Shown: positions 1 to 64,000, counted from the stretch's first letter. The stretch is 64,000 bases of DNA from a virus (IMGVR_UViG_2571042445_000002); one strand, 5' to 3'. The notes: generated by a model not told the origin, from the sequence alone. Numbers and translations: made by a program.

Positions 1-2
1 AC

Positions 3-1172
3 GGGCGATATATCACTGACGGCCTGTCCTCTAAGGATTTCACACGCGTATTTGAACTCATCAGGAAAGAGCAAAACCGCAAACGCCGCCAGGCGAACAG
101 GACACTCACGCCGGGCAGGCTTAGGAATAAATCAGCCGAAGACATTCTTAAGCTGGGGAAAAAGAAAGGCGGCACGTTCTTTACGCGTGACGATCTGAAA
201 GGCTTCGAAAAGCTGCGAAGCAAAGCTCGCGAAAAATACGACAGCAAGACGGCTGGCATTACATACGCACAACTGGTAGCGTCCAGCCAGGCTATCGATA
301 TTAAGCGAGCAAATAACGCCGTAGACGACGGTTCTGGTATCAAAAGAGCTACGCCCGTATCTCTTCGTCACAATGTGATTAATATCCGCGTGGAAGCGTC
401 CGATATATCCGTTCACCAGCACCACATTGTCCGGGTACGTTTTGAAGAATGGGATCAGATGGTCGATGACATCGCAGAAGACGATAAATCAGCCCTGAAA
501 GTCACAAAATCACTGTGTGCCGGGCGAGTGTCTTTCGATTGTGACTGCGGTCGCCATCAATACTGGTATCGCTACATCGCCACTGCGGGTAACTTTGCCC
601 TGGCCCCGCCAAAAGAATACGCCTATCCAAAAGTTCGCAACCCTAAGCTGCAAGGCGTCGCCTGTAAACATGTGATCCACTCAATGACACGACTACAGTC
701 TGCCAGTTGGCAGATGAGTATTGCTCGTGCGCTACAAAAGGCTGCAACGCAAATTGCATTTGGTGACGATCGCCGCCGTACAACCAAACACTTCTCAAAA
801 GAAGACGAGAAGGAGTTTAATCGCAATCGTAGCAGTAAAACGAACGTTGAAGCCGCCAAACGCGAATGGAGGCTCTATCAGAAGCGCCAGGCAGCTTTAA
901 GTACAAAACTGGCGAAGGACAACGGCAAGATCGACAAGCTACGTGACCAACTGACCAGGGCCAGAAAGTTGTCAGACGCACAGAAAAAACGAGCGGCAGC
1001 AAAAGAAGCGGCCTTGCAACGTGAGAAACAGAAAAACAAGGAGCTTCAGCAACGCCTTGCCGATCAGTTCGCACTGAAGAAGCAGGCGTTCATTGATGCG
1101 CTGGTCATGGCAGGAACGTCACCTGAGCAAGCTGAAAAAATGTTTATGGAGTATGTGAAGAAAGGTTCTTAA
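3..1172 (+). CDS. hypothetical protein, 5' end outside window; SWIM-like CxC...CxH zinc-finger motif and K/E/R-rich coiled-coil C-terminus
   Basis: Frame is open from the window edge to the stop at 1172; motif FDCDCGRHQ...ACKHVIH; followed by hairpin plus T-run at 1181-1206. Confidence 0.5.
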   Translation, partial: GRYITDGLSSKDFTRVFELIRKEQNRKRRQANRTLTPGRLRNKSAEDILKLGKKKGGTFFTRDDLKGFEKLRSKAREKYDSKTAGITYAQLVASSQAIDIKRANNAVDDGSGIKRATPVSLRHNVINIRVEASDISVHQHHIVRVRFEEWDQMVDDIAEDDKSALKVTKSLCAGRVSFDCDCGRHQYWYRYIATAGNFALAPPKEYAYPKVRNPKLQGVACKHVIHSMTRLQSASWQMSIARALQKAATQIAFGDDRRRTTKHFSKEDEKEFNRNRSSKTNVEAAKREWRLYQKRQAALSTKLAKDNGKIDKLRDQLTRARKLSDAQKKRAAAKEAALQREKQKNKELQQRLADQFALKKQAFIDALVMAGTSPEQAEKMFMEYVKKGS

Positions 1173-1180
1173 TTTACAAC

Positions 1181-1206
1181 AAAGGCGGTTATCCCGCCTT
1201 TTATAT
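1181..1206. terminator. hairpin (AAAGGCGG-TTATC-CCGCCTTT) with T-run between convergent genes
   Basis: 8-bp GC-rich stem followed by TTTTATATT on + strand; lies between the stops of 3..1172 (+) and 1206..1955 (-). Confidence 0.55.
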
Positions 1207-1955
1207 TACTTGTCCTTTGATGTCGATTGAGACTCATATATTGTCTCTACGTCATCTATTAGTTTATTAATACCCCACAATCCAGTGTCTTTATAAAAAT
1301 CGCTTTCTTCAATTGCTTTTAATAAATCGGCAAAATCTTCTTGGGTGGAAATTCTTTTCTTTTTTGCTTTATATACATCGACAATTACTTTTATGCCGTG
1401 ATACAGAGCCACTCTGGCACTCTCAGTCTCTCTCTTCTTCTCTTCAATTGCAGACAATAATTTATATTGATCTTCTGTTTGCTTTTCTAGACTTAAAAGC
1501 TTGCTCTCTTTTTGCTTCAAGTTGATCTGCAACTCTTTTATTCTTGCCCTCTCTTCTAAATCAAACTCATAGTCAATGTATCTAATTCTTGCATAGTTCC
1601 TGCCTGTTGCTTTTGATATATACATTGTTATATAAGGCATTACCACTGACGCAGTGGTTCCATATATAAATGGCATAACAAAATGAGCCACAAACGGAGA
1701 TACAATGATGGGGCCAACATAAGGAAAGTGATATTTCTCACCAACCCATACTATAGACAATGTTGTATATATATCGTACTTTGATTTAAATAATATAATA
1801 ATATCCTGCCAATTAACGACAAAAAAAGAAACCACAACATATGCAAACAACTTATTGAATAACTTGTCTCTTATGGCTTCTTCTATTGTGTTCCTGACTG
1901 TGACATTTTCATCTTTATTTTCTAATGATGAATCTTTGCTCATATAAAAATTCAA
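1206..1955 (-). CDS. hypothetical membrane protein with C-terminal coiled-coil; AT-rich cargo gene
   Basis: 249-aa ORF; hydrophobic segments (FAYVVVSFFVV, IVWVGEKYHFPYVGPIIVSPFVAHFVMPFIYG) followed by charged heptad-like region; local AT-richness contrasts with neighbours. Confidence 0.45.
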   Translation of the reverse strand: MNFYMSKDSSLENKDENVTVRNTIEEAIRDKLFNKLFAYVVVSFFVVNWQDIIILFKSKYDIYTTLSIVWVGEKYHFPYVGPIIVSPFVAHFVMPFIYGTTASVVMPYITMYISKATGRNYARIRYIDYEFDLEERARIKELQINLKQKESKLLSLEKQTEDQYKLLSAIEEKKRETESARVALYHGIKVIVDVYKAKKKRISTQEDFADLLKAIEESDFYKDTGLWGINKLIDDVETIYESQSTSKDK

Positions 1956-2004
1956 ACCTTCTTATCTTTATTTTTGGTGAAGGCGGTCTTCCAGACCGCC
2001 AAAC

Positions 2005-2385
2005 TCAAACACCAACCAGGCTTTCAAGAGGAATGCCAAACTGGGAATGTAAACGACGAATCATAGGTAACGTCAAATTTCGCGTGCCATTAAGCACTTC
2101 GTAAACACGGTTTGACTTACCAATTGCCGGTTCCAGATCCTTCACTGTCAGCCCTTGCTGTTCCATACGAAACTTAATGGCTTCAATAGGTGATGGTGGC
2201 TCAATTGGGTAATGCTTTTTCTCGTACTCTTCGATGAGCAGGCACATTACTTCAAAGAAATCGCCTTCCGGTGTGTTCATTTCCGGTTCGTTATCGAACA
2301 TCGGTTCGACCGCACGCAGTGCGGCCTCATAATCTTGTTCTGTACGGATAGGTTTAATGTTCATTAATTCCAAAGGAAAGCCCAC
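2005..2385 (-). CDS. XRE-family HTH protein with HigA-like (N-terminal domain + C-terminal HTH) antitoxin architecture
   Basis: C-terminal Cro/C1-type HTH (GLTVKDLEPAIGKSNRVYEVLNGTRNLTLPMIRRL); 35 bp downstream of the higA-like gene on the same strand. Confidence 0.5.
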   Translation of the reverse strand: MGFPLELMNIKPIRTEQDYEAALRAVEPMFDNEPEMNTPEGDFFEVMCLLIEEYEKKHYPIEPPSPIEAIKFRMEQQGLTVKDLEPAIGKSNRVYEVLNGTRNLTLPMIRRLHSQFGIPLESLVGV

Positions 2386-2420
2386 TTGTTAAGTGGGCTT
2401 TTTGTATGTGTTTAACTATA

Positions 2421-2759
2421 TCAGGCTGCTTTTTTATTCAGGTTCCGCTGAGAAATAAATTTTTCAGCAGTATTGATACGACTTAACTCTTCCTGAACGC
2501 GCATATCATTTTCGACTTCCCACAGGTCTACTGCGGTCTGAAGATTAATCCAAAAATCTACAGAAGTATCGAATGCTTTTGCCAGGCGATATGCCATATC
2601 CATCGTTAGCTTACGATTGTTATTAACAAGAGCACTTACGGTGTTACGATGAACATGAAGTATTTCTGCTAACTCGTTGATCTTAAGCTCTAACGGCTCC
2701 AGGTATTCGTACAGCAGGATATCACCTACAGTCGTCGGTTTTCTGGTTGCCTGTTTCAT
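2421..2759 (-). CDS. higA: HigA-family antitoxin (HTH)
   Basis: 112 aa; HTH segment TVGDILLYEYLEPLELKINELAEILHVHRNTVSALV; directly follows toxin gene (toxin-first order typical of higBA). Confidence 0.6.
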   Translation of the reverse strand: MKQATRKPTTVGDILLYEYLEPLELKINELAEILHVHRNTVSALVNNNRKLTMDMAYRLAKAFDTSVDFWINLQTAVDLWEVENDMRVQEELSRINTAEKFISQRNLNKKAA

Positions 2760-2830
2760 TTTTTGCCCTTACTAGCGTGCGTATTAAGTGGACTCTGGTC
2801 AGTACCCGGCTCATCCGCCGGGTATTTGTT

Positions 2831-3133
2831 TTAGTATTTGTGAGGGTCGAGATACAAGTCCTCGGCCTTTCCGTTAACCCACTTAAAAATTAACCTGTAT
2901 TGCTTATTCACCCTTATTGATGAATAGCCGTTTAGCTTCCCTGACAATTCCTCATACCGATTACCTGGTGGTGATCTCAAGTCCTTCCAAGTAGTTGCAG
3001 CATTGATAATATCCAGCTTCCGCAACAATGTAATCTGAATATCAGAAGGTATCTTTTTGTGTGGTATTGAAAATTCAAAAAAATCATCAAGCCACTCATC
3101 CCTGAAATTCTTTATGTTAATCTTTTTGCTCAT
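2831..3133 (-). CDS. higB: HigB-family toxin (RelE/ParE superfamily mRNA interferase)
   Basis: 100 aa; C-terminal SIRVNKQYRLIFKWVNGKAEDLYLDPHKY resembles HigB/RelE core motifs; ATG at 3133. Confidence 0.6.
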   Translation of the reverse strand: MSKKINIKNFRDEWLDDFFEFSIPHKKIPSDIQITLLRKLDIINAATTWKDLRSPPGNRYEELSGKLNGYSSIRVNKQYRLIFKWVNGKAEDLYLDPHKY

Positions 3134-3296
3134 CGATCATTTTATCCTCCATGATTATTAATGAATGTCATAATGATAGCGCACCGTTGCACCGTGCGCA
3201 AGTGCATATTGTAACAATTCCCCTCCTCCATCCAAAATCACAATCTCCCGAAAATCTTCCTTTCGATACCTGATAAATCGACCTTTGAGGACGCTT

Positions 3297-4088
3297 ATGG
3301 GCCGTTTTGATGAATGGCTTGCTGATGATGCAAGCCTGATGAGAAAGGAAACAGAACATGACAGCACGCAGAGAGAAGAGACAACGACGGTTGAAGCGAA
3401 TGAAGGAAGCACAACGGAAAATGGGAATGTCAGTGCAGGGCCATTCAGTATTCTGGAAGAGCACGCCGCCACCCAATCTAATAGCCATGATAATTGGCCT
3501 GATAATGCTGGTGACTCTGTTACGGAAGTGATTGAACCTGACATCGCTCCCCTACCGGCATCGCTCGCTAACAGAGAACCAAACCAGCAGCTTAAAACCC
3601 GATATAACGGACATAAAGCGTTCAACGACCAGATCCGCGCCGATTGGATGCTCATTATTGAATCAAGCCCTGACGCGTTCGAGGCGCTTTTATACCGCCC
3701 GGCTGATGGCACCTATGGCGTCGTAAACGATGAAACAGGTGAAGAGTCTTTCACGCAACTGGACAACAACCAGCGTGAGCTTACCTATCTGGAACCGGAA
3801 ATCGTATACGTCCTGGATAACCCGGACGGAAGGGATTCGTTTCATGCCATTGATGCCGATGGAGAACAGGATGGTCTTGCTGATGAAGTGCTAATCCTGC
3901 GTATTGCTGCAAACAACGTACCTGTTGGTTCAATCCTGGAATGGAACGAAGAAATGGCGAATGGCCTCGCCCGCCGCTGGTGGTACGTGCATCGAATCTT
4001 CAGCTACGGAACACAACACGTCGGCTCCCTTTATTACTGCATCCCGGCCAGGAACTTTGATACCACTCAAAACGGAGTGATCGAATGA
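3297..4088 (+). CDS. hypothetical phage protein (first gene of a 4-gene overlapping operon)
   Basis: ATG at 3297 preceded by GAGG at 3287-3290; stop overlaps next start (ATGA at 4085). Confidence 0.45.
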   Translation: MGRFDEWLADDASLMRKETEHDSTQREETTTVEANEGSTTENGNVSAGPFSILEEHAATQSNSHDNWPDNAGDSVTEVIEPDIAPLPASLANREPNQQLKTRYNGHKAFNDQIRADWMLIIESSPDAFEALLYRPADGTYGVVNDETGEESFTQLDNNQRELTYLEPEIVYVLDNPDGRDSFHAIDADGEQDGLADEVLILRIAANNVPVGSILEWNEEMANGLARRWWYVHRIFSYGTQHVGSLYYCIPARNFDTTQNGVIE

Positions 4089-4852
4089 CACCCAACAAAA
4101 CTCTCCTGTCCCGCATTGGCGAGTGGCAGACAACGCGTACTGGAAAATTCCAGACAACTGGTCTGGAAAGAGTGGATAACGCTTTTGCTACGCTAATCAG
4201 TGACATTTTTTCTGACGTAACGCTGGTGGAACCAGCAAAAGAAGAAAGGCGCTTTGCATCATTCCTGAGTCGCCCACCAGCGGAGCGTGTTTATGTTGCC
4301 CGTTTTGATAACGCGGTCGAGTTCCTTAAAGCGGTTCGCCGTGCTAATGCCGGGCAAGGGAGAAAGCCAGAGAATCCGAACATTAATCGCGATGCACTCC
4401 CTCTGATTAATATCTCGCGCTCAATGGATATCAGCTATATCAACAATGACCAGCAGATAGACCGCAAAAGCTGTGATCACTTCTGCGAACCTGGCAGCGG
4501 TATGCCTTTAGTAGCCCTGGAATACACCCAGGCAAATCTGACGTATGACGTTACATTAATGGCGACGGATAAGGCGACCATGAGTCTGATGTGTAATTCG
4601 CTAGGAGCACGTCTTCGCTTGATGGCAGGAACGCAGTTTGAAGCAACAACCCCGCTGGTACGAGTACCCGTCCCGCTAATTTGCGCGATTCAGGATGCTA
4701 AAGACATCAGTTTTACTGATGTTTCAGCCCCGATTGGGGAAGAGCGTATTTATGCTGCACAAACGGCAATTAGTGTTATAGCAGACGTGATCACCGCCTG
4801 GGAGCTGGACGCGAAACGAATTATTACTGAAACCTCTCTGAGAATGGGGTAA
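4085..4852 (+). CDS. hypothetical phage protein
   Basis: 255-aa ORF translationally coupled to flanking genes. Confidence 0.45.
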   Translation: MTPNKTLLSRIGEWQTTRTGKFQTTGLERVDNAFATLISDIFSDVTLVEPAKEERRFASFLSRPPAERVYVARFDNAVEFLKAVRRANAGQGRKPENPNINRDALPLINISRSMDISYINNDQQIDRKSCDHFCEPGSGMPLVALEYTQANLTYDVTLMATDKATMSLMCNSLGARLRLMAGTQFEATTPLVRVPVPLICAIQDAKDISFTDVSAPIGEERIYAAQTAISVIADVITAWELDAKRIITETSLRMG

Positions 4853-4855
4853 GCC

Positions 4856-5836
4856 ATGTCCCAGGAGCTACAGCAATACTTTCTACAGTCCGTTACCATC
4901 AACGGAAACAAAGTACCCAGGGAGTGGATATTCACTGCCGTATATGTGGAAAAGGCAAACCTGCGTGCACCATTGCTGAAACTGGAAATTCACGACATTA
5001 CCGGCACCATAATTGATGACTGGAAAACAAAATACGGCGCAGCACTGGTTGCAGAGATGGGAGATCCACAAGGCAATTCAGGCACGTTTAAAACAACTTT
5101 TTTCGTAACATCTGCGGTGCTGGCTGGTGATGTCATCACGGTCATTGCAGTCAGTGAAGACGTTCGGATATTTAAGATCCCCGCCATACGGGCTAACCTG
5201 CATACAAATAAAACGCCTGATACCATTTTCAAGACGTATACCGGTACACTGAAAATCGCCTCCAGCGCATTGAAACGAAGCTGTACGTACCATCTTTCCG
5301 CCGGGGAAAAACCCTCCAAAATGCTATCTGAAATGGCCCGCGATAAAGGCGCTTTATGCTGGGCCTGCCGTGGTCAGTTTAACTTTTATACATTAGCTGA
5401 CCTTATGAAAGCCAAACCATCATTCACCTATGAAGGGAACAACCCCAGGGCGGAATACACGATTTCAAAAATGAGGCTTATACAGCAAGAGTATGCCGTT
5501 ACGGCAAATACTCAGTATCGATTTACCGGCTATTCAATGACTGAAGGCTATGTCGAATATGGCGATAGCTCACTTCCAATACGCTATATATCCGATCCGG
5601 ATATGGAAACTCTGCGCAATATGCAATTGTCGCTCGTACCCAAAATGGATATTGAGGTCGCGGGTAATCCCGACATCACGCCGGGAATGGTTATTGAGAT
5701 CCTCGTGTATCGTTACGACCAGGAAAATAAGCTGGACGAATCGTTGCCTCGTAAGCTGTTGGTGAAAAACGTAGCCCATTTTGAGGACCGGATCGGCTAT
5801 ACAACACGAATGATATTAGGAGTACCCAACCAGTGA
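4856..5836 (+). CDS. hypothetical protein, possibly baseplate hub (gpD/gp27-like)
   Basis: 326-aa ORF immediately upstream of and overlapping the spike-like gene; functional assignment is by position only. Confidence 0.4.
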   Translation: MSQELQQYFLQSVTINGNKVPREWIFTAVYVEKANLRAPLLKLEIHDITGTIIDDWKTKYGAALVAEMGDPQGNSGTFKTTFFVTSAVLAGDVITVIAVSEDVRIFKIPAIRANLHTNKTPDTIFKTYTGTLKIASSALKRSCTYHLSAGEKPSKMLSEMARDKGALCWACRGQFNFYTLADLMKAKPSFTYEGNNPRAEYTISKMRLIQQEYAVTANTQYRFTGYSMTEGYVEYGDSSLPIRYISDPDMETLRNMQLSLVPKMDIEVAGNPDITPGMVIEILVYRYDQENKLDESLPRKLLVKNVAHFEDRIGYTTRMILGVPNQ

Positions 5837-6510
5837 AACGCAGAGCGCAAATCGTAGGGACCAAACACCCTGCCGGACTTATGCGAGCGCAGGTCCGCAT
5901 ACTGCCTGACTGGAACGGTGTACCGGATGAAGACCTCCCATGGGCAGAGTATCAAATGCCTATCGGTAACGCCTTTACACCTACAGTCAGCGGCGATTTA
6001 GTCTGGGTCGAATTTCCTTATCTGGATGCTAAAGGCAGGATAGACACGCGCCGACCTTTAATCGTTGGTGCGGCGCAGGATGCCCCAGGAGGCGTACCAA
6101 ATGTGCCTCCGGAAGCCTCCGGACAAGGAAGTGCATGGTCGCCAGAAGAAGTTGATGGTGCCCCTGCCCGCCCCCAGTTTTCGGCGACTGAAGATTTTGT
6201 TATTCACCGAAACAATATCCTTGAGGTCAGAACGGCTGGCGGTGGCTATGAAATAGCAAACACCGCCGCAGGATCAAGGATAGGGATGAACGAATCCGGC
6301 CAGATTTACATAATCGGCCCGGCGAATATAGTGCTTAATGCTGGAGGTGAGGTTAACGTCAAATCAAGCAGCAAAACCAATGTATCCTCAGATGGAGACG
6401 TTAATGTAAAAGGCAGCAATGTAACCGTCGCAGCTGATGGTGATATAGCCCTGAAAGCTGGTGGCGCGCTAAAAGCAACAGCGAGCAATTTCTCCTTTGT
6501 GAAGGGATAG
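5833..6510 (+). CDS. baseplate central spike protein (gpV/Mu gp45-like)
   Basis: N-terminal OB-fold-like segment (PWAEYQMPIGNAFTPTVSGDLVWVEFPYLD) and C-terminal beta-helix-like G/V/N-rich repeats (NVKSSSKTNVSSDGDVNVKGSNVTVAADGDIALKAGG). Confidence 0.5.
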   Translation: MKRRAQIVGTKHPAGLMRAQVRILPDWNGVPDEDLPWAEYQMPIGNAFTPTVSGDLVWVEFPYLDAKGRIDTRRPLIVGAAQDAPGGVPNVPPEASGQGSAWSPEEVDGAPARPQFSATEDFVIHRNNILEVRTAGGGYEIANTAAGSRIGMNESGQIYIIGPANIVLNAGGEVNVKSSSKTNVSSDGDVNVKGSNVTVAADGDIALKAGGALKATASNFSFVKG

Positions 6511-6569: not shown

Positions 6570-7475
6570 ATGAGATTAGTCGCCTTTAAAAACATATACG
6601 TCTATCGCCTTGCCCGCGAAATAAAACTGGACTCAACCACCGTTAGTGATGCCTTAAGCCAATTCACATTCACTCCATGCGCATCACAAGAAATGGCAAA
6701 AGTCGGATGGGTGCCGGTTCTGGCTGACAACCTGATCCATGAATACCACGGTTTTCTACTTCTCCAGCAACAGCGAGAAATTAAGCTCCTGCCCTCTCAT
6801 GTCATTAAGGAGGAAGTGCAGAAAAAAGTGGAAAAGCTCGAAAATGAGCAATCTCGTAAGCTGAAGAAGTCGGAAAAAAACACCCTGAAGGATGAAGTTC
6901 TCCACTCTTTGTTGCCTCGCGCATTCACTCGCAAATCATTGTCGCGAATCCTTATTGATCGCGACAACTATCTGGTCTTCGTAGAAGCTTCCAGCGCCAG
7001 AAAAGCTGAAGAAATGCTGGCGCTCTTACGTAAATCACTTGGCAGCCTGCCAGTGATTCCATTCACGCCGATAGAACCGCTCGAAATGACTATGACCGAA
7101 TGGTTCAAGTCAACATTTCCTCAAGGCTTTAAAGCAGGCGAAGAAGCCATATTGAAATCTCTGTTCGATGACGGCGGCGCAGTTCGTTGCAAGAAAGTAG
7201 ACCTACAGTCAGAGGAAATAATGACTCATATTGAAGCCGGAAAAGTTGCAACAACAGTTGCAATCAACTGGCAGGACCGCGCGACCTTCAGGTTAAACGA
7301 TGACATGAGCATCAAAGCACTGACGTTTTGCGATGATCTCTATGACCAGAACGATGACATCGACCGTGAAGATGTTGCCCAGCGATTTGATGCTGACTTC
7401 ATTCTGTTCACAAGCGAATTATCCGCGATGTTTAGCTCGCTGGTGGAGGCCATTGGCGGTGAAGCAGAGCATTAA
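6570..7475 (+). CDS. rdgC: recombination-associated protein RdgC
   Basis: N-terminus MRLVAFKNIYVYRL, internal LKKSEKNTLKDEVLHSLLPRAF and DIDREDVAQRFDADFIL, C-terminus GGEAEH closely parallel E. coli RdgC as recalled; no obvious SD. Confidence 0.8.
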   Translation: MRLVAFKNIYVYRLAREIKLDSTTVSDALSQFTFTPCASQEMAKVGWVPVLADNLIHEYHGFLLLQQQREIKLLPSHVIKEEVQKKVEKLENEQSRKLKKSEKNTLKDEVLHSLLPRAFTRKSLSRILIDRDNYLVFVEASSARKAEEMLALLRKSLGSLPVIPFTPIEPLEMTMTEWFKSTFPQGFKAGEEAILKSLFDDGGAVRCKKVDLQSEEIMTHIEAGKVATTVAINWQDRATFRLNDDMSIKALTFCDDLYDQNDDIDREDVAQRFDADFILFTSELSAMFSSLVEAIGGEAEH

Positions 7476-7491
7476 TAACCGACCGCTGGCG

Positions 7492-8139
7492 GTGAGTCTT
7501 TGTGATTATACAGGGAATATGGTTTCCCCCTGGCTGGAACACGGCATTGATGCAGTCATTGTCGATCCGCAACACCAGGAGTCCGGCAGCCAATTGATGG
7601 AGTCAGGTGCTGTACTCACACGTATCAGCGCAATTATTGACAGTGATGAGGTCTACAATTTCCTTCGGAAAAATTTGCACAGAGTTGTATTTTTAGCCGG
7701 TTTCCCTCCGTGTACTGACCTGGCTGTATCTGGCGCACGCTGGTTCGCAGATAAAGCGAAAAAAGATCCGGTTTTCCAGTTCAAAGCAATGCAGGTTGTC
7801 TGGCAGTGTTACGACATTGCAAAGATGATTGGTTGCCCGTACATGATTGAAAACCCGGTCAGCCAAATATCGACATTCTGGCGTAAACCTGATCACATAT
7901 TCCATCCTTATCACTTCACTGCATATTGCAAGGAAGACAATTACACCAAAAAAACATGCCTGTGGAGCGGACAAGGATTCATCATGCCAACTCCGCGAAT
8001 CGACGAGTCGTTAGGTGATCCAGACAACCGAATACACAAGGCACCGCCAGGACCTGAAAGAGCGAATTTTCGTAGCGCGACACCTTACGGTTTTGCAAGA
8101 GCTGTATTTGAAGCAAATAAGGAGGGAATCCGTGGCTGA
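7492..8139 (+). CDS. short C5-cytosine DNA methyltransferase-like protein (start uncertain: GTG 7492 or ATG 7519)
   Basis: Motif GFPPCTDLAVSGARW resembles C5-MTase PCQ motif IV; MIENPV resembles ENV motif VI; N-terminal SAM motif degenerate; only ~215 aa. Confidence 0.45.
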   Translation: MSLCDYTGNMVSPWLEHGIDAVIVDPQHQESGSQLMESGAVLTRISAIIDSDEVYNFLRKNLHRVVFLAGFPPCTDLAVSGARWFADKAKKDPVFQFKAMQVVWQCYDIAKMIGCPYMIENPVSQISTFWRKPDHIFHPYHFTAYCKEDNYTKKTCLWSGQGFIMPTPRIDESLGDPDNRIHKAPPGPERANFRSATPYGFARAVFEANKEGIRG

Positions 8140-9049
8140 TATTGGTGCTAAATTTATTTCTTATAGCGACAATCATCGTCCTGCGGCGGAAGCCACTATC
8201 AGCCATATGCGACGTATTCGCTCGGAGGACGAATTTGATCGCCCCGTCTTTAAGTGGGTCGGCGGCAAATTTTCTGCACTGCCCATTATCTTCGAACACC
8301 TGCCCCACGGAAAACGGTTGATAGAACCTTTCGTTGGAGGTGGCGCTGTTTTCACTAATGCCGGATTTAAAAGCAACCTGCTGAACGATATCAATAATGA
8401 CCTGATTAACTTCTATCAGACATTGCAGCGTGAAGGGCATTCTCTTATCACACTGGCATATCGTTTTTTTCAGGATTACAACTCTGCTGATGCATTTTTG
8501 AATGTTCGCAATGCATTCAACAATGGTGCTTATGATTCCCTTCACCATGCAGCGGCGTTCCTGTATCTCAATCGTCATTGTTTTAATGGCGTCACTCGCT
8601 ATAACCGTAAAGGAGAGTTCAACGTCGGATATGGAAAGCAGAAATCCCCCCACTTCCCTCTCGCGGAAATGGAGGCGTTCCTGGCTGACGATATTTCAAA
8701 GTATTCGGAATTTGTGTCCGGCGATTTTGCTGGTGTAATTGAGGCTGCAGGGAATGATGATGTGATTTTCTGCGATCCCCCCTATGAACCATTGCCCGAC
8801 ACTACCGGATTTACAAATTACTCAGGGCATAGCTTTAGGTTTGAAGATCAACAACGGCTGGTGTCACTGCTGGTGGATGCCCACAGACGCGGAGCGAAAA
8901 TTGTGATAACAAACAGTGGTGCGCCTAACATTCGCGAACTTTACGTTGGCAATGGCTTCAAGGTGTATCCTATGCCATCCCGTCGCTCTGTATCCTGTAA
9001 AGCATCAACCCGAATGATAGCTAACGACATTATAGCCACGCTCAATTAA
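8132..9049 (+). CDS. dam: DNA adenine methyltransferase (Dam family, GATC-type)
   Basis: FKWVGGK...EPFVGGGAVF (motif I) and DPPY (motif IV) in Dam order; GTG start at 8132 preceded by AAGGAGGG; alternative ATG at 8207; overlaps previous gene by 8 nt. Confidence 0.8.
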   Translation: MADIGAKFISYSDNHRPAAEATISHMRRIRSEDEFDRPVFKWVGGKFSALPIIFEHLPHGKRLIEPFVGGGAVFTNAGFKSNLLNDINNDLINFYQTLQREGHSLITLAYRFFQDYNSADAFLNVRNAFNNGAYDSLHHAAAFLYLNRHCFNGVTRYNRKGEFNVGYGKQKSPHFPLAEMEAFLADDISKYSEFVSGDFAGVIEAAGNDDVIFCDPPYEPLPDTTGFTNYSGHSFRFEDQQRLVSLLVDAHRRGAKIVITNSGAPNIRELYVGNGFKVYPMPSRRSVSCKASTRMIANDIIATLN

Positions 9050-9094: not shown

Positions 9095-9180
9095 CGGTAC
9101 ACTAATAACACCATTCTGGTACTAAAAAGGCATCAAGGTAGTATCAAAATACCACATGGAACCAAAACGGTGTTATTCCG
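9095..9180. repeat. centromere-like repeats downstream of the ParA/ParG-like operon
   Basis: AACACCATTCTGGTACTAAAAAGG and inverted CCAAAACGGTGTT; near-identical copy AACACCGTTTTGGTACTAAAAGAA at 10300-10323 on the other side of the operon. Confidence 0.45.
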
Positions 9181-9183: not shown

Positions 9184-9471
9184 TCATTTTGTATCCTCAG
9201 ACTCTGCAAGCATGAGGATAGCATGGCGGATCATATTCAATTTGCTGCGATTATGCTTTTTGCTTAACGCATCAAGTACCTGGTACTCGTATTCATTGAA
9301 GCCAACACGAATGGATTTAAAATCACGTGGGGCGTCCTTATCGAGCACTTTGTTGTCTTCTGGTTGCTCACCCGGCACCAAATCAGCCTTACTGGCAAAA
9401 TCCTCAATTCGGCGTTCAAGATCGGGGTCTTTTACTTCGGGGGCTTTTACCGATTTACGAGGCTTAATCAC
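9184..9471 (-). CDS. small partition protein, ParG-like (candidate centromere-binding protein)
   Basis: 95-aa ORF overlapping the parA stop by 8 nt; basic N-terminus, C-terminal helical segment; size and position typical of type Ib ParB/ParG. Confidence 0.45.
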   Translation of the reverse strand: MIKPRKSVKAPEVKDPDLERRIEDFASKADLVPGEQPEDNKVLDKDAPRDFKSIRVGFNEYEYQVLDALSKKHNRSKLNMIRHAILMLAESEDTK

Positions 9472-10105: not shown

Positions 10106-10390
10106 ATCCGTTCCTCGGTGTTATTTTGGTATCAAACTGGTTCCAAACAGAAGCCTTATTGATGCGGTTTTGGCTCTATAGTGGAGTCACTATGCTTTGC
10201 AAAAGTATAACACTAAACACTCTAAATTTACCCTCTGTTGCATCCTGTTTAACACGAAATCAGCCTCAAAGTGGAACCAGACACAAAACAGCACCATAAC
10301 AACACCGTTTTGGTACTAAAAGAACACCAAATTAGAACCATAACAGTATAAAAAAGGCTGCAAATTGCAGCCTTTGAAGATGTAGATTTG
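10106..10390. repeat. repeat-rich region upstream of parA (candidate parS/operator)
   Basis: GGAACCAGA, TGGTTCC, AACACCGTTTTGGTACTAAAAG repeated and inverted relative to 9095-9180. Confidence 0.4.
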
Positions 10391-55685: not shown

Positions 55686-55721
55686 CAGATAAGGAGCGGC
55701 CCCAACCGGGGCCGAATTTGA

Positions 55722-56156
55722 ATGACGACATTAATTGACACTGTAAAACCGACGGAATCCTACCTTGAGGACATTTTGCCGCAGGCGCTCAATGGCAGGA
55801 GTGAAGAGGCGTTTCTGGATGCATATCTGGATGGCATGGCGGAAAGGCTGAAAAGAGATCCACAGCTTTATCATCTTTATGGGCCGTGGTGGCCTGCGCT
55901 TAAAACGTTATTGCTGGAGCGTGGCGACATATCATTTGGACAAGTTGTAGATAGTGATGTGGCAGAAATCTACAAAATGAGTCGCCCGGCGCTTACGGTT
56001 TTAGCCGGGCATCTGTATTCGAGCGATCGCCTGGAAAATGACGCGGTATACAATCCCGTTCATGCTCTGGAAGTCGCGCCTTATGCTGATGATACAGAGC
56101 CATACGTATACACAAGTTACGACGAGTCTATAGAGAAATATCGAATCGTGGGGTAG
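55722..56156 (+). CDS. hypothetical protein
   Basis: 144-aa ORF after GC hairpin 55697-55714. Confidence 0.4.
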   Translation: MTTLIDTVKPTESYLEDILPQALNGRSEEAFLDAYLDGMAERLKRDPQLYHLYGPWWPALKTLLLERGDISFGQVVDSDVAEIYKMSRPALTVLAGHLYSSDRLENDAVYNPVHALEVAPYADDTEPYVYTSYDESIEKYRIVG

Positions 56157-57684: not shown

Positions 57685-58893
57685 ATGAGTCAGCAAGTAG
57701 AATCATCAAGCCTGGAGATCATCTCAACCGCAATTGAAACGCTGCGGACACAAATCGCGCTTATACAGAAACGAAATCCGGGCGATGACCTGTCAAAGCG
57801 ACTGCATGAGAGCGTCATTGCCACTACAGATAACCTGGTGGCGGAAATCAACCAGCTCCTTGATGATGGGGCAGTTGATTACAATAAGCTGGTGGATCAG
57901 TTTGAGGAATATCAGCAAGCCGTTAATGATGGCTTGATCCGTTTTTCTCAAGTCACTGGTGTATCAGCGACAGTTGAAAGCCTGGGGGATGCAGTTAATC
58001 AATTTGCCGCGAATATGCGTAATGAGATCGGCAATCTGGAGGCGCGTCTTGAGCAGGCAAATACACTGCGCAAATCTGCTGAAGTCGATTTGAGTCGTTA
58101 CAAAAAAGACTATCCGCCAAGCCTGACAAAACGACTGGATGTTGCGGAGAAAGATAACCGCACGCTGAAAAGAGAGCGTCGGGAACTAAAAGAGCGTTTA
58201 ACCAAGCTAAATCAGCAATGCGTTGAGTATCAAGGCGAACTCGTCACACTGCGTAAAAAGTTAGCAGCGGCGCAGAGCATTATTGAAACATTGAAACGAG
58301 AGTGCTCAGAGCTTGGTCATGATCTGAATCGCGCCTGTGGCATGGGGCAAAGGCCAGAGACATTCCCGCTAATGTATGACGGAAGAGAAGCTATTGCCTA
58401 TATCCATGAGTTTCCGCATGGTCTGGTCGCGGAGACTGGGCAACGTGGCGAAGCGTTGCTGACGGCAAATTACCATCAGCAAATCAGAACCAGCCGCCTG
58501 CTGACGATGGATGTGATCCCGTCAGTATGGGGAACGCCGCTTTACTACCGAATTCCTGGCTTCGAAACTGACTGGAATACCGACATAGACGAATGTCTGG
58601 CAGATAAAATTATGGCGTACCTTGAAACGGATTTTCCACGCTTGCATCGCCGGATTATGGACTCTAAGGATGCACCGATCGACGAATTGAAAATGCGTCC
58701 AGAGACGTTGGAGGCAATCAAGCAGACTGAGTTTGATACAGTGTTCAGTGTGGCCTGCATTCCAAGCAGCTTTCATGAAAGCATTCCGTTCATGCAGGGC
58801 GATCGCCGTCAGGAAATAATTGATGCTTGCCGGGTATGGGCGAACGAGTGGGATAAGAAGAACGGTGGAGTTGAAAATCTTTACGGGAAATAA
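57685..58893 (+). CDS. hypothetical protein with N-terminal coiled-coil
   Basis: 402 aa; SD AAAGGGAAC. Confidence 0.45.
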   Translation: MSQQVESSSLEIISTAIETLRTQIALIQKRNPGDDLSKRLHESVIATTDNLVAEINQLLDDGAVDYNKLVDQFEEYQQAVNDGLIRFSQVTGVSATVESLGDAVNQFAANMRNEIGNLEARLEQANTLRKSAEVDLSRYKKDYPPSLTKRLDVAEKDNRTLKRERRELKERLTKLNQQCVEYQGELVTLRKKLAAAQSIIETLKRECSELGHDLNRACGMGQRPETFPLMYDGREAIAYIHEFPHGLVAETGQRGEALLTANYHQQIRTSRLLTMDVIPSVWGTPLYYRIPGFETDWNTDIDECLADKIMAYLETDFPRLHRRIMDSKDAPIDELKMRPETLEAIKQTEFDTVFSVACIPSSFHESIPFMQGDRRQEIIDACRVWANEWDKKNGGVENLYGK

Positions 58894-58930
58894 TGTATTA
58901 GAAAATTAAAATTGTTTTTCTAACATATTG
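58893..58930. promoter_or_regulatory. operator-like palindrome ATGTATTAGAAAATTAAAATTGTTTTTCTAACATATTG
   Basis: Half-sites ATTAGAAAA and TTTTCTAAC inverted around AATTAAAATTG; second copy AGTGTTAGAAAGTAAATTTT at 59044-59063. Confidence 0.5.
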
Positions 58931-58981
58931 ATTATGTAGTTAACTTAACATAGAATTTTTCGTGCTGGTGGGGAGCTTCCC

Positions 58982-59044
58982 ATGTCGCTTGCGGGTTTGA
59001 TAGTCACTTCATTGTCTTTCCCCACCAGCATCAAACAATTTTAA
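58982..59044 (+). CDS. 20-codon hydrophobic small ORF (MSLAGLIVTSLSFPTSIKQF) enclosed by an 11-bp hairpin; candidate type I toxin-like peptide
   Basis: Stem 58964-58974 / 59019-29 sequesters the GGGGAG SD-like element; not in ORF track (below 60 aa). Confidence 0.25.
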   Translation: MSLAGLIVTSLSFPTSIKQF

Positions 59045-60238: not shown

Positions 60239-60313
60239 GATGGTGTAGCTCAGTGGTAGAGCAGTTGGCTGTTAACCAACTGGTCGGTGGTTCGAATCCA
60301 CTCACCATCGCCA
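60239..60313 (+). tRNA. tRNA-Asn (anticodon GTT)
   Basis: Cloverleaf parsed manually: acceptor GATGGTG/CACCATC, D-arm GCTC-AGTGGTA-GAGC, anticodon loop CTGTTAA, T-loop TTCGAAT, 3' CCA encoded. Confidence 0.8.
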
Positions 60314-60315
60314 AT

Positions 60316-60391
60316 GCCGGTTTAGCTCAGTTGGTAGAGCGCCTGCCTTGTAAGCAGGATGTCAGCGGTTCGAGTCCGTTAACCGGCACCA
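60316..60391 (+). tRNA. tRNA-Thr (anticodon TGT)
   Basis: Acceptor GCCGGTT/AACCGGC, anticodon stem CCTGC/GCAGG with loop CTTGTAA, T-loop TTCGAGT, CCA encoded; 2 nt after tRNA-Asn. Confidence 0.8.
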
Positions 60392-60392
60392 A

Positions 60393-60479
60393 CACAACAG
60401 GTAAGGGTATTTTGCGACGTCGGAGATCGCCGAGCTTGGCAGAGGGTTCGAATCCCTACGAAGTACCCTTACCGTTGTG
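60393..60479 (+). other. tRNA-like element: canonical T-loop (GGTTCGAATCC) and D-arm-like hairpin enclosed by a 16-17 bp inverted repeat; lacks anticodon arm (pseudo-tRNA or structured RNA)
   Basis: IR CACAACAGGTAAGGGTA 60393-60409 / TACCCTTACCGTTGTG 60464-60479; cannot be folded into a full cloverleaf. Confidence 0.3.
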
Positions 60480-60579
60480 ATGAATGCACAGGCTGATGTG
60501 CCGCAACTACAGTAGTGCGCGCTTTGCGGGGCTTGCTACAACCCTGTGTCGGAGTTCAGCACCGACCATCACAATCACT

Positions 60580-60666
60580 GGAGAGTAGGGAGCATGGTGC
60601 TCAAGCGGTCTTGAAAACCGTCCCATTGCGCAAGCGATGATGGTTCGATTCCATTACTCTCCGCCA
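60580..60666 (+). tRNA. atypical tRNA-like gene, possibly tRNA-Ser(TGA) with long variable arm and unusual D-arm
   Basis: Acceptor GGAGAGT/ACTCTCC + G + CCA; anticodon arm GCGGT-CTTGAAA-ACCGT; T-arm GATGG-TTCGATT-CCATT; D-arm atypical (5-bp stem, 3-nt loop). Confidence 0.35.
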
Positions 60667-60922
60667 GCGCAACGTTAAGAGTATTTGGCTAATTAAGCGA
60701 ATGCCGGAAGCAGAACCGGATCACCAAATGCTCTTACCATTGCGGTGAATGCGGCTAAGCGCACGCGGAACAGTTAAAACAGTAAAGGTGGTCTTTTTAC
60801 TGGCGTAACGAGAATCCATAAGTGATCCGGCGTTAATTGTTAACTGGTTAACGTCACCGGGAGGCACCCGGCACCGCAACCTAACAGCAATGGCGTTTTG
60901 TCTTAAAAGGTGGCTGCAAGTG

Positions 60923-61051
60923 ATGGATTTTTGGGCGTTTGCCGATAAAAACCCGGAGTGGACATTATTGTTTCTGCTGGTGGTTGCATACGGGGTAGAG
61001 CAAGCGGCAAAAGCCTTACGCGGTTCTGGCAAAAAGCGTAAGCGTAATTAA
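60923..61051 (+). CDS. 42-aa small membrane protein candidate (MDFWAFADKNPEWTLLFLLVVAYGVEQAAKALRGSGKKRKRN)
   Basis: Single hydrophobic helix plus basic C-terminus; SD AAGGTGG; located between tRNA-like genes; below ORF-track size cutoff. Confidence 0.3.
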   Translation: MDFWAFADKNPEWTLLFLLVVAYGVEQAAKALRGSGKKRKRN

Positions 61052-61060
61052 CAGTAATCT

Positions 61061-61136
61061 GGCCCTTTAGCTCAGTGGTTAGAGCGGGCGACTCATAATC
61101 GCACGGTCACCGGTTCAAGTCCGGTAGGGGCCACCA
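61061..61136 (+). tRNA. tRNA with CAT anticodon, ileX-like (tRNA-Ile2/lysidine type or elongator Met)
   Basis: GGCCCTTTAGCTCAGTGGTTAGAGCGGGCGACTCATAATCGC...GGTTCAAGTCCGGTAGGGGCCACCA closely resembles E. coli ileX as recalled. Confidence 0.8.
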
Positions 61137-61588: not shown

Positions 61589-62164
61589 ATGTTAACGGCG
61601 AACGATAACGCGTATTCAGAAGATGATCTCGTTTTGAGTGACTTTATAGGGCGACGAGAATGCTGGACGCAAAAGCGCGAGGAGCTTTATGCAGCGTTAG
61701 TTCGTAAAGGCGTCAACATCGAAACCGCACAGAACGGTGATATGACAGTGGTAAGTGTTGGACTGCACGGCGTAAGTGTGTCAGCAATCAATCATGAGCC
61801 GTACATTGCGTTATCCGAGTCGATGGTAAGGTTAGTTAAGTTCCTGAAGTACACAGAAGCGAATAACGTGATCATCGCCAAAAAGAACATCCCGTTCTCA
61901 TCGGCCTTTTACTGGATGATGAAGGGGCTTGATGCCCGGCGAACATCATGGCCTAAAGGGAGCTATATATCGATGCTCCGTGGCAGTGTTGGTAGCAAAG
62001 AAAAGCTCGTCGAATTCCTGCCGGAAGAGGCATTCGATATTGTTGAAGGTTGTGATGTGATGGTTATGCCTCGCCTGGTAATGATGAATGGGGATTTACA
62101 GGCGCAGACAGACTGGTTTGCAACTGGAGTTGATATTATCGCTACTGACTGGGAGGTTTTTTGA
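61589..62164 (+). CDS. protein with C-terminal DUF2829/Tad2-like domain (candidate anti-defence signal sponge)
   Basis: C-terminal half SAFYWMMKGLDARRTSWPKGSYI ... NGDLQAQTDWFATGVDIIATDWEVF fits the recalled DUF2829 pattern (ARRxxW ... DWEV); start may be internal. Confidence 0.4.
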   Translation: MLTANDNAYSEDDLVLSDFIGRRECWTQKREELYAALVRKGVNIETAQNGDMTVVSVGLHGVSVSAINHEPYIALSESMVRLVKFLKYTEANNVIIAKKNIPFSSAFYWMMKGLDARRTSWPKGSYISMLRGSVGSKEKLVEFLPEEAFDIVEGCDVMVMPRLVMMNGDLQAQTDWFATGVDIIATDWEVF

Positions 62165-62544
62165 TGTACGAGGCTACTAAATTACGCACTGAGGATGCGA
62201 TGCACATTGGTTGGGACATCATCACCTGCAAGATAACATCATGCAAGGCTACACGCACAGACGCCGGACACAAGAGCACAATATCAGGTTATGTCGTGAT
62301 GTCAGTCAGGAGTGTGCGCATACGCTTCAGATGGAAAGCCTGCCAGGTTACATCATCAATGCCGCTTACCGTCGAGCAGGATTATTTATGCTTACCCGAA
62401 ATAGACGGAGCGTTGCTGGTGGGCAATAGTGGTCGAAAAGCCGATTTTGAAGCCAGTCTGAAGATGGCGCAGGCGGTGATCAACAAACATAAAGGGAAGT
62501 GGGAGGCAAAAGTTAAGCATGTTGTTCGTTTATCCCGCTGGTAG
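62161..62544 (+). CDS. hypothetical protein
   Basis: 127-aa ORF overlapping previous stop. Confidence 0.35.
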   Translation: MMYEATKLRTEDAMHIGWDIITCKITSCKATRTDAGHKSTISGYVVMSVRSVRIRFRWKACQVTSSMPLTVEQDYLCLPEIDGALLVGNSGRKADFEASLKMAQAVINKHKGKWEAKVKHVVRLSRW

Positions 62545-62577
62545 TGTTAGCAAATTGATATTAATTTTCTAATACAT
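62543..62577. promoter_or_regulatory. operator-like motif AGTGTTAGCAAATTGATATTAATTTTCTAATACAT
   Basis: Inverted half-sites GTTAGCAAA / TTTTCTAAT; TTTTCTAATACAT resembles the P1 C1 operator core (CTCTAATAAAT) as recalled. Confidence 0.5.
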
Positions 62578-62651
62578 CATGTTTTTGACAGTCTTCTCAG
62601 TATTAACAAGCTGATTATCATCCCCTCGGTCTTTTTCTATCCGGGGGATAA

Positions 62652-63044
62652 ATGGAGCAAATCAGTAGCGCCGAAATAGCGGATATCATGATCAGGGCTA
62701 ACTGCTATCTGACGGTCACCGAAATCACCAGCCGTGCAAAAGCACAATATCCTCACCTTCATGTGTCGCGCGTAAACGTAAATAACATCATACGTTTTTT
62801 TGTTCGTTCCAGTCGTGCCATTTGCGAAATAGACGACCGCGTATACCCCCGGAAATATTGGTTACATGGCCTGAATGGATACCAGTTCAAGGTGCGCGGG
62901 CGCACTCCTGAATTCGGTCGGCTGTTGGTGAAAAACACCAACCGAAAGATAGAAGCTCAATTACGAAAGGAGCAGCGTCAGTTGGTGGCGATGACTAACC
63001 AGCTATGGAACGCCGCTGTGAAAAAACGTGAGGCTTCCCTATGA
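62652..63044 (+). CDS. hypothetical protein, possible late-promoter activator (Lpa-like position upstream of pacA)
   Basis: 130 aa; directly upstream of and overlapping the PacA-like gene, as lpa is in P1 (recalled); functional call by synteny only. Confidence 0.35.
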   Translation: MEQISSAEIADIMIRANCYLTVTEITSRAKAQYPHLHVSRVNVNNIIRFFVRSSRAICEIDDRVYPRKYWLHGLNGYQFKVRGRTPEFGRLLVKNTNRKIEAQLRKEQRQLVAMTNQLWNAAVKKREASL

Positions 63045-64000
63045 CGTTAATTAACTGGGAAGCGCATCGAGCTAAGTTCCTGGAGTTAAGAGAAGAAACC
63101 GGGATCACCATAAAAGAATATTGCGAGCAGCATGACCTCAGCTTTAACACCGCCAGAAAGCATCTCAATATGAAAAAAAATGAGGTTAAGGCGAAAGCTA
63201 AGGCTACCGGGAAAAGTACAAAACAGCGCGCAAAAAGCAGTGCCACCGGCTCAAAAAAAGAGCAAAAAAAGGCTAATAAAAGCACAGAATTTACAAAAAC
63301 TGACAAATCGTTGGCTGGTGGACGGTTCCGCGCCATGCCGCAAAAACAAAATGCGGATCACAAAGAAAAGCCAAGTAATAACAACAAGATACACAAGGAT
63401 GTGAAGGGATCATTTTGTGATGAAATGGGAGAAATGATCCCTAAAAGCAGCGATAAAGCCCAACGAAACAAGGGATCATTGCAAATGATCCCTGATTCAT
63501 CAGCTCAAAGCACCACTTTGCCTGCCACCAACGTCGCCCGTGAGATGATGAAGAACGGCGCGACTGAACATTTACGACTTGCGATACAGATGGCGCAGGA
63601 ACGAGCAATTCAGTATCAGGCTATCGTTGACCAGGAAGCGGAGCGACTACAGGAAGAGATTGACGCTCTCGGTGATACACAGCCAGAGGGGATGCACCCA
63701 GGGCAGCGTCTTCTCGGACTGATCAGCGATGCGGCCTACTACATGAATGACTTTATCACCAGGCTGGCAGCCATCTATCAGAACGAGCAGAAGCTACGCC
63801 AGGGGGATGAAAAACTTGCGCAGGGCGCGCGTCAGCAGGCATTCAGGGAGGCTGAGGCCAGAGAAAAACTGGCGATTGCCCGCCTACAAGCCGAGCAGCG
63901 TGGCAAGGAGATTGAGTATCGCATTGGCGCTGACGCACGCGCCGCCAGGGTTATCGCCGCCGCTATACGTATGCGTGAGCGCGAGGAGCTGGATGATATA
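63041..64000 (+). CDS. pacA: PacA-like terminase small subunit / pac-recognition protein, 3' end outside window
   Basis: Open frame from ATG 63041 to window end (not in ORF track because unterminated); N-terminus MTLINWEAHRAKFLELREETGITIKEYCEQHDLSFNTARKHL parallels P1 PacA N-terminus as recalled. Confidence 0.5.
   Translation, partial: MTLINWEAHRAKFLELREETGITIKEYCEQHDLSFNTARKHLNMKKNEVKAKAKATGKSTKQRAKSSATGSKKEQKKANKSTEFTKTDKSLAGGRFRAMPQKQNADHKEKPSNNNKIHKDVKGSFCDEMGEMIPKSSDKAQRNKGSLQMIPDSSAQSTTLPATNVAREMMKNGATEHLRLAIQMAQERAIQYQAIVDQEAERLQEEIDALGDTQPEGMHPGQRLLGLISDAAYYMNDFITRLAAIYQNEQKLRQGDEKLAQGARQQAFREAEAREKLAIARLQAEQRGKEIEYRIGADARAARVIAAAIRMREREELDDI
63406..63491. other. pac-like site: four TGATCCC/GGGATCA elements (GATC-containing) in alternating orientation inside the pacA 5' region
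   Basis: GGGATCA 63406-63412, TGATCCC 63434-63440, GGGATCA 63472-63478, TGATCCC 63485-63491. Confidence 0.45.

Follow-up and report, generated by a model that had tools for sequence, protein, structure and literature searches.

How should a phage-plasmid be classified when it has the replication, packaging and immunity functions of P1 but a different set of partition and addiction genes? The window analysed here, a stretch of 64,000 nt of the viral genome IMGVR_UViG_2571042445_000002 covering about two thirds of an element of ~90-94 kb, poses this question, and a preliminary description had answered it by proposing a divergent, modularly rearranged relative of P1. We estimate a probability of about 90% that the window represents ~64 kb of a D6-type (subgroup P1-g2) myovirus phage-plasmid of Escherichia. 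The element belongs to a known lineage of P1 relatives, that of phage D6, and is ordinary except for a swapped plasmid replicon; Pfam and Rfam support every module of the window. Its importance beyond correct classification is small, as E. coli and Salmonella commonly carry D6-like phage-plasmids, which have already been described.

Collinear with D6 positions 3206-70634, the window aligns over ~85% of its length at a nucleotide identity of ~82% and contains 62 of the 72 D6 genes in conserved order. Its proteins are mostly 75-100% identical to those of D6 in amino acid sequence, compared to 22-69% for P1, and only 6,963 of 64,000 nt (11%) align to P1, at 76% identity. The broader claim of a P1-like phage-plasmid holds, given that the best phage matches of RepA, PacA and a 2,278-aa protein all fall within P1-like phages, and P1-type morphogenesis genes (gene 23, gene 22, prt, pro, sit, bplA and tub) are full length and 41-54% identical to P1 at the amino acid level. 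The reading nearest to the preliminary description would make the element a form of P1 proper (Punavirus, P1-g1) with partition and toxin-antitoxin modules of foreign origin, for which the 85% identity of RepA to the P1-g1 phages SJ46 and RCS47 and the 88-90% identity of the tRNA region to P1 and P7 could be cited. We consider this extremely improbable and reject it on the grounds of the collinearity with D6, the 11% alignment to P1 and protein identities that favour D6 (structural proteins ~40-50% identical to P1 versus 75-95% to D6); furthermore, the par and Hig modules are D6's own, no site in the window fits the P1 C1 operator consensus and P1-type late promoters are not enriched.

Every feature listed in the preliminary description was found in the window; as a set, these features constitute the published signature of the D6 lineage (P1-g2) rather than that of a new divergent P1 relative. 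The traits regarded as divergent, namely ParM/ParR with a small ParA, HigBA and replication set apart from partition, are already annotated in D6 and described for D6-like plasmids (PMC6799933, PMC7969092). One partition locus on the minus strand (10391-11912) comprises ParM (10767-11783), ParR/StbB (10391-10756) and parC-like GAGAC repeats at 11-bp spacing (11825-11912), with Pfam matches to StbA_N (2e-69), ParM_N (1e-55) and Plasmid_stab_B (3e-14). A second partition system, also on the minus strand (9184-10105), is formed by a small ParA ATPase (9464-10105; Pfam AAA_31/CbiA/MipZ) and a downstream partner of 95 aa (9184-9471), which are 100% and 98% identical to D6 orf60 and orf61 and lie in an operon flanked by inverted AATAACACC repeats. 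No window ORF matched P1 parA or parB (tblastn against P1), in agreement with the earlier view that partition in the window relies on ParM/ParR and a small ParA rather than on a P1-type ParAB. About 15 genes separate the partition genes (9184-11912) from repA (22329-23213), and ParM/StbB with a small ParA, set apart from the replicon by structural genes, is the layout of subgroup P1-g2 (PMC7969092).

Addiction genes were likewise identified correctly, though the conclusion drawn from them has to be revised. HigB toxin (2831-3133), HigA antitoxin (2421-2759) and a second HTH protein (2005-2385) occupy 2005-3133 on the minus strand (Pfam HigB-like_toxin, 1e-34, and HTH_3) and are 89%, 100% and 98% identical to D6 orf70-72. 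HicA toxin (41708-41890; Pfam HicA_toxin, 1e-9) and HicB antitoxin (41246-41677; HicB-like_2, 6e-13), on the minus strand at 41246-41890, take the place of D6 orf23 and orf24, both of which are absent from the window. No phd/doc genes were found within the 64 kb of the ~90-94 kb covered by the window, but the inference that addiction depends on HigBA/HicAB rather than on phd/doc is an effect of the window boundary and unsupported, because D6 and the close relatives carry phd/doc outside the covered region: in D6 and the near-identical plasmid NZ_CP085065.1, phd/doc, cre and c1 are encoded in the ~30 kb beyond it, together with pacB in NZ_CP085065.1. The window shows only two thirds of the element; judging from these relatives, the remainder should carry c1, cre/lox, pacB and phd/doc.

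The one real modular exchange was missed by the preliminary description, which had nonetheless correctly recognised a RepA/iteron replicon. The plasmid replicon cassette (22099-23505, minus strand) contains repA (22329-23213), encoding a RepA with Rep3 WH1/WH2 domains, an origin of five iterons at 21-bp spacing (23294-23400), six further incA-like iterons downstream of repA (22099-22333) and, beside the origin iterons, a five-GATC cluster (23436-23490) and two DnaA boxes (23263 and 23497). RepA is 41% identical to its P1 counterpart and has no match in D6; conversely, the D6-type Rep initiator (D6 orf42) has no similarity anywhere in the window. The sister plasmid LR890273 carries the D6-type Rep at 98% identity, and comparison with it places the breakpoints at ~22094 and ~23519. 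A 1.4-kb cassette has thus been exchanged, with a RepA of the p0111 family, the type found in P1-g1 phages, in place of D6's own Rep. The missing D6 Rep does not disqualify the element from D6-like membership, because the replicon is a variable cassette. Replicon-based plasmid typing would group this element with P1-g1/p0111 despite its D6-like backbone, and the fact that the replicon can be swapped as a unit, at breakpoints placed precisely between backbones that are otherwise almost the same, bears on phage-plasmid incompatibility and coexistence. We also considered a combined scenario of a recent, clean whole-cassette swap between P1 subgroups at a tub/pmgB hot spot and a homopolymer in repL (see below) acting as a genuine slippage-prone switch that turns lytic growth on and off. 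This scenario is rather unlikely, but if true, exchange of control iterons, repA and origin would change the incompatibility group and could allow coexistence with D6-type elements.

By homology to P1 and D6 modules, plasmid replication would start at this RepA/iteron origin, organised like P1 oriR/incA, while ParMRC and the small ParA with its 95-aa partner would segregate the plasmid, HigBA and HicAB would stabilise it, and phd/doc and cre/lox probably add stability from the part of the element outside the window. Alternatively, the element might be a D6-like prophage integrated in a chromosome; integrative P1-like prophages are on record (PMC10879196), and circularity cannot be read from the window alone. 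We consider this very unlikely given intact replication and two intact partition systems, 64 kb in which no junction, integrase or att site was found, and the fact that every close relative is a circular plasmid of 89-95 kb. The absence of a chromosomal junction follows from both window termini falling within phage genes.

Lysogeny control follows D6 rather than P1. A dispersed 16-bp motif, TGTGTTAGAAAATTAA, occurs at 12 sites versus 0.76 expected by chance in the window, spanning 6524-62576, with copies (no strand assigned) at 6524, 6542, 14614, 44834, 46039, 56594, 57649, 58894, 58912, 59044, 62543 and 62561; there are 17 copies in D6, 19 in CP085065 and none in P1. The dispersed operator motif noted previously is thus real, but it is not the P1 operator: a search for the P1 C1 operator consensus at up to three mismatches found nothing in the window, D6 or CP085065, and the window accordingly lacks the ATTGCTCTAATAAATTT operators that are a feature of Punavirus P1/P7. 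Lysogeny would be maintained by a C1 repressor of the D6 type, with its gene outside the window; it would bind these 16-bp operators, which precede repL, c4/icd/ant, lpa, the hrdC-dam operon, gene 23 and pmgS. An immI-type module on the plus strand (46146-47331; Rfam RF03163, 53.9 bits, and RF01695, 70 bits) extends the icd/ant-like pair reported earlier, with a1b1 target sites and a C4 antisense RNA (46267-46352) upstream of icd (46400-46627), which is 100% identical to D6, and of a Rha-type antirepressor (46624-47331) with a Phage_pRha domain; the C4 RNA probably keeps the antirepressor silent. The late-promoter activator gene lpa (62652-63044, plus strand; Pfam BPP1_LPA, 2.5e-50) would turn on late operons bearing a conserved AAATCACA box, which was found at six sites versus 0.29 expected, each of them preceding a late operon in sense orientation, an enrichment inflated by the pattern having been defined after the sites were seen. 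The P1 late-promoter pattern is not enriched in the window (two matches versus 4.7 expected). We infer operators, late promoters and the pac site described below from position, enrichment and analogy to P1; the operator and late-promoter sequences, which are particular to the D6 lineage, lend themselves to testing.

RepL would drive lytic replication, but repL (45020-45983, plus strand) is split as sequenced by a +1 frameshift, one surplus G in a G7 tract (45638-45644), evident from alignment with D6 and CP085065. The gene is in frame in all ten compared relatives, eight of them from IMG/VR, and a genome contig scan with the G-tract region returned no match. As sequenced, the frameshift leaves lytic competence uncertain and marks a possible defect. 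It is also an argument for a defective or domesticated D6-like plasmid that replicates and segregates but cannot finish the lytic cycle, together with the shrinkage of cin and the invertible tail-fibre segment to a remnant: a Cin invertase fragment of 24 aa (35735-35806, minus strand; tblastn with D6 Cin residues 11-34) and a single cix-like site at 32735. Although the invertible segment (cin/C-segment) is indeed lost, loss of cin fixes host range without disabling the phage, and a single extra homopolymer base is a common assembly error. Moreover, the remaining D6 genes for morphogenesis, lysis, Dar and regulation that the window contains are all full length, and we therefore hold a defective plasmid to be unlikely, albeit the least implausible alternative to a D6-type phage-plasmid.

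These virion and lysis genes all lie on the plus strand. A homologue of tail gene 25, its 5' end cut by the window start (1-1172), is 97% identical to D6 gp25 residues 10-397, and tail and baseplate genes 7, 24, 6 and 5 (3285-6510) are 77-85% identical to D6 and 23-45% to P1 in amino acid sequence. RdgC/HrdC, a DNA methyltransferase-like protein and a Dam methylase follow (6570-9049; Pfam RdgC, 1e-100, and MethyltransfD12, 2e-53; PHROG DNA methyltransferase). Major capsid protein, an Ig-like protein, sheath, gene 21, pmgG, bplB, pmgC and tail tube (14759-21847) are 75-90% identical to D6 and 42-54% to P1. The block at 23576-35503 encodes pmgB, the sit transglycosylase, pmgA, bplA, gene 16, R, tail fibre S (31540-35049, containing 120-bp repeats) and assembly protein U; lydA, lydB, hdf, darA, ddrA and ddrB (lysis and anti-restriction head proteins; 35964-41134) are 64-94% identical to D6, with a Pfam ddrB-ParB match in ddrB, and the portal protein (prt) and head-processing protease (pro; 42123-44820) are 94% and 92% identical. 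PADLOC returned nothing for the accessory ORFs at 1206-1955, 48203-48736, 61589-62164 and 62161-62544.

Packaging, anti-restriction and tRNA genes, also on the plus strand, had been recognised correctly. The pacA gene starts at 63041 and its 3' end is cut by the window end at 64000; its product matches a PHROG terminase family (2e-97) and is 70% identical to D6 PacA, with likeness to P1 PacA confined to the first 47 residues. Inside pacA, a candidate pac site has five GATC in 132 bp (63356-63490) versus a window mean of 3.8 per kb, at positions identical in D6, and PacA/PacB would cut at this Dam-sensitive site to begin headful packaging. DarB and Ulx (48849-56156) are 98% identical to D6 and 43-46% to P1; DarB, the 2,278-aa protein (48849-55685), combines N6-methyltransferase and SNF2/helicase domains (Pfam) and is itself 98% identical to D6 DarB and 43% to P1 DarB. 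Head-packed Dar proteins would shield incoming DNA from restriction. To the tRNA-Asn, tRNA-Thr and tRNA-Ile set reported before, ARAGORN and Rfam add a tRNA-Ser(UGA) (60580-60666), so that four tRNAs, all present in D6, lie at 60239-61136; the CAT-anticodon tRNA agrees with P1 tRNA-Ile2 (trnI) in 75 of 76 positions. Scanned permissively against Rfam, this region gave only sub-threshold matches (the tRNA-Sec model on the Ser tRNA, and STnc100) and no DicF.

Among known elements, the closest records are circular plasmids of 89-95 kb from E. coli and E. marmotae at 97-99.9% identity, with the best relative varying along the window (CP104667 for 1-25 kb, LR890273 for 29-50 kb). The E. coli plasmid NZ_CP085065.1 (94,191 bp, strain P31_YH1_02.21) and its relatives CP165739 and OZ121093 share 97-99.9% nucleotide identity across the window; the RepA cassette of this group is identical to that of the window at 99.9%, and nearly all ORFs that NZ_CP085065.1 has in common with the window are 94-100% identical, two small ORFs being lower. 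Unlike the window, NZ_CP085065.1 has a TnpB insertion adjoining hicA and an intact repL. Escherichia phage D6 (MF356679/NC_050154) and D6-like plasmid prophages (P1-g2) have the gene order of the window, and D6 shares ParM/StbB with the small ParA, the HigB/HigA/HTH trio, the four tRNAs, the c4-icd-Rha antirepressor module, Dar genes, a D6-type PacA with identical GATC positions, the 16-bp operator motif and structural genes between replication and partition. Compared to D6, the window has an unrelated, p0111-family replicon cassette, has lost cin and the S'/U' segment, lacks glnS, tciA/B and orf23/24, has gained HicAB, differs in the variable parts of sit and the tail fibre, and carries a frameshifted repL. 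The p0111-type replicons of the P1-g1 phage-plasmids SJ46, RCS47, JL22 and phi456 are 85% identical in RepA and 77% in nucleotides across repA and origin. The window replicon is a distinct allele (MOB-suite rep_cluster_2164); unlike those replicons, which lie beside parAB, it is embedded in a D6 backbone with tub and pmgB on either side. P1 and P7 (Punavirus, P1-g1) share with the window their lifestyle, a RepA with iterons, Dam sites and DnaA boxes, repL, c4/icd/ant, Lpa, a pac site internal to pacA, Dar, tRNA-Asn/Thr/Ile2 and homologous virion genes, but their proteins are mostly only 22-69% identical, D6 C1 and P1 C1 are 21% identical, operator and late-promoter sequences differ, and, relative to P1 and P7, the window is without ParAB/parS and has its blocks in a rearranged order.

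The 64,000-nt window is a further member of the D6-like (P1-g2) phage-plasmids, one whose replicon has been exchanged. The preliminary description had viewed it as a divergent, modularly rearranged relative of P1, and whole-window megablast searches of phage records, covering P1, P7 and D6, returned Escherichia phage D6 (MF356679/NC_050154) as the single strong collinear relative, at 81% identity over window positions 1-24591 and 89% over 39-64 kb, whereas matches to P1, P7, RCS47 and SJ46 were confined to the repA and tRNA regions. By blastn against the full D6 genome, 54,572 of the 64,000 nt aligned to D6 positions 3206-70634 as one reversed collinear series with 72-96% identity (weighted ~82%), compared with only 6,963 nt at 76% identity for P1. 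The matching D6 interval holds 72 genes, 62 of which occur in the window in unchanged order. At the protein level, nearly all ORFs share 75-100% identity with D6, versus 22-69% with P1; the window lacks glnS, tciA, tciB and D6 orf23/24.

The records closest to the window, with 97-99.9% identity, are E. coli and E. marmotae plasmids that are circular, non-mobilizable and 89-95 kb long; they include NZ_CP085065.1, CP165739, OZ121093, LR890273, CP104667 and CP098883. The best relative differs between window segments, and the sequence is therefore a recombinant within a D6-like plasmid sublineage. Recombination within the lineage is likewise indicated by the uneven gene-by-gene identity to D6, which falls from 100% (small ParA, HigA, icd) to 36-59% (orf73, pmgR, ParR, upfB). 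The window contains no chromosomal junction; it begins within gene 25 and ends within pacA, both of them phage genes.

The window is genuinely mosaic in its replicon, its tail-fibre switch, its gene content and its uneven divergence from D6. RepA (22329-23213, minus strand; Rep3 WH1/WH2 domains) is preceded by five origin iterons at 21-bp spacing (23294-23400), a cluster of five GATC (23436-23490) and two DnaA boxes (23263 and 23497), and is followed by six further iterons (22099-22333), two of them direct and four inverted, a layout that equals oriR/incC/incA in the P1 annotation. The protein shares 85% identity with its counterparts in the p0111-type P1-g1 phages SJ46, RCS47, JL22 and phi456, 45% with SSU5-type RepA and 41% with that of P1/P7, and has no similarity to D6 Rep. 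In contrast, the sister plasmid LR890273 carries a D6-type Rep (98% identical to D6 Rep) between flanks that are 99.5% and 98.3% identical to the window. Homology to LR890273 breaks cleanly at two points, the first control iteron (~22094) and the late box of pmgB (23519); the control iterons, repA and the origin were thus exchanged together as a single 1.4 kb piece (22094-23518). At ≥95% identity, this replicon allele occurs in only four plasmid records.

The pacA gene (from 63041, cut by the window end) was matched to a PHROG terminase family, and its product is 70% identical to D6 PacA and resembles P1 PacA only in the first 47 residues. Five GATC sites lie within 132 bp of pacA (63356-63490) in partly inverted GGGATCAT/ATGATCCC pairs, and because their positions are exactly the same in D6, although the two pacA genes are only ~79% identical in nucleotide sequence, the cluster is, by analogy with P1, a credible candidate for a Dam-sensitive pac site. 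DarB (2278 aa), with N6-methyltransferase and SNF2/helicase domains, is 98% identical to D6 DarB. The predicted Asn, Thr and Ile tRNA set was recovered as Asn, Thr and a CAT-anticodon tRNA matching P1 tRNA-Ile2 at 75/76 bases; there are four tRNAs rather than three, the same four as in D6. The additional tRNA-Ser(UGA) (60580-60666, ARAGORN) is conserved in D6 and NZ_CP085065.1, and in Rfam matched only the tRNA-Sec model at a sub-threshold 44.6 bits (cut-off 47). Beside lpa, a 191-aa protein (61589-62164) is 93% identical to D6 orf6 and carries a domain resembling Thoeris anti-defence 2, Tad2 (Pfam, 4e-10), making it a possible anti-defence gene.

A possible defect lies in repL (45020-45983), which a single additional G in a run of seven (45638-45644) breaks into two ORFs, 210 aa and 115 aa long; the gene is in frame in D6, NZ_CP085065.1 and eight IMG/VR relatives, one of which has six G. 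The additional base reflects either an assembly error in the homopolymer or a genuine mutation, inactivating or slippage-related. In the tail-fibre region, a 24-aa cin remnant (35735-35806) and a sole cix-like site (32735) remain; the invertible S'/U' segment has been lost, so that a single tail fibre is fixed, and with it the host range. Tail-fibre gene S contains 120-bp (40-aa) tandem repeats, with four copies at 33286-33768 and two at 34099-34342.

In the immunity module, Rfam detects a C4 antisense RNA (70 bits) immediately ahead of icd, along with the a1b1 targets of this RNA (53.9 bits); icd is 100% identical to that of D6, and the antirepressor belongs to the Rha family. Sites fitting the P1 C1 operator consensus number 17 in P1, and there are none in the window, D6 or NZ_CP085065.1. 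K-mer counting instead yielded a dispersed motif, TGTGTTAGAAAATTAA, with 12 window sites at ≤3 mismatches versus 0.76 expected, all intergenic and several forming convergent pairs offset by 18 bp. It precedes repL, c4, lpa, pmgS and the hrdC-dam operon, all at positions that match P1 C1 operators, as well as gene 23 and pmgM. D6 carries 17 copies, including just upstream of c1, and NZ_CP085065.1 carries 19, whereas P1 has none; C1 of D6 and P1 share only 21% identity. We infer that TGTGTTAGAAAATTAA is the D6-type C1 operator and reflects an immunity specificity unlike that of P1. Late promoters may also be of D6 type: AAATCACA followed by seven bases and a -10-like hexamer (NANNNT) occurs six times (3235, 11934, 23519, 31031, 42070 and, on the minus strand, 48076) versus 0.29 expected, a generous statistic because the pattern was defined after the sites were seen. 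All copies are sense-oriented, 40-60 nt upstream of the late operons of gene 7, upfC, pmgB, R, prt and a CHAP hydrolase. The box is similar to the complement of the -22 box in P1 and is a candidate Lpa-dependent promoter; Lpa itself was confirmed (Pfam BPP1_LPA, 2.5e-50).

Pfam also confirmed ParM, StbB/ParR, a 213-aa ParA, HigB, HigA, HicA and HicB. Every feature listed in the preliminary description was borne out. GAGAC repeats at 11-bp spacing upstream of parM (11825-11912) look like a parC centromere, and inverted AATAACACC motifs flanking the small parA operon (9104-9177 and 10116-10307) are candidate centromere or operator sites. After HigBA, a second HTH protein (2005-2385, minus strand) matches PADLOC PD-Lambda-2_B (145 bits, N-terminal 119 of 402 profile positions); HigB and HigA gave no match to the PADLOC PD-Lambda-2 system. 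HicAB sits at the D6 orf23/24 position. In the closest plasmid, NZ_CP085065.1, an IS200/IS605-type TnpB gene (57859-59028) is inserted beside hicA, and the window is without it.

The proposal that HigBA/HicAB replace phd/doc is not supported, since phd/doc, cre, c1 and pacB of D6 and NZ_CP085065.1 all lie in the genome part beyond the window, and phd/doc is missing because of where the window ends; it is conserved in both P1 subgroups (PMC7969092). The P1-like lifestyle was correctly recognized, whereas unusual divergence is unsupported. The D6 record annotates StbA/ParM, StbB, the ParA-like orf60 and a RelE/HigA/HigA trio at the same positions, D6-like plasmids have been described with parA, stbB, parM, higA-higB and phd-doc (PMC6799933), and subgroup P1-g2, defined around D6, has 14 persistent genes between replication and partition (PMC7969092). 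The traits that appeared divergent relative to P1 are therefore hallmarks of the D6 lineage.
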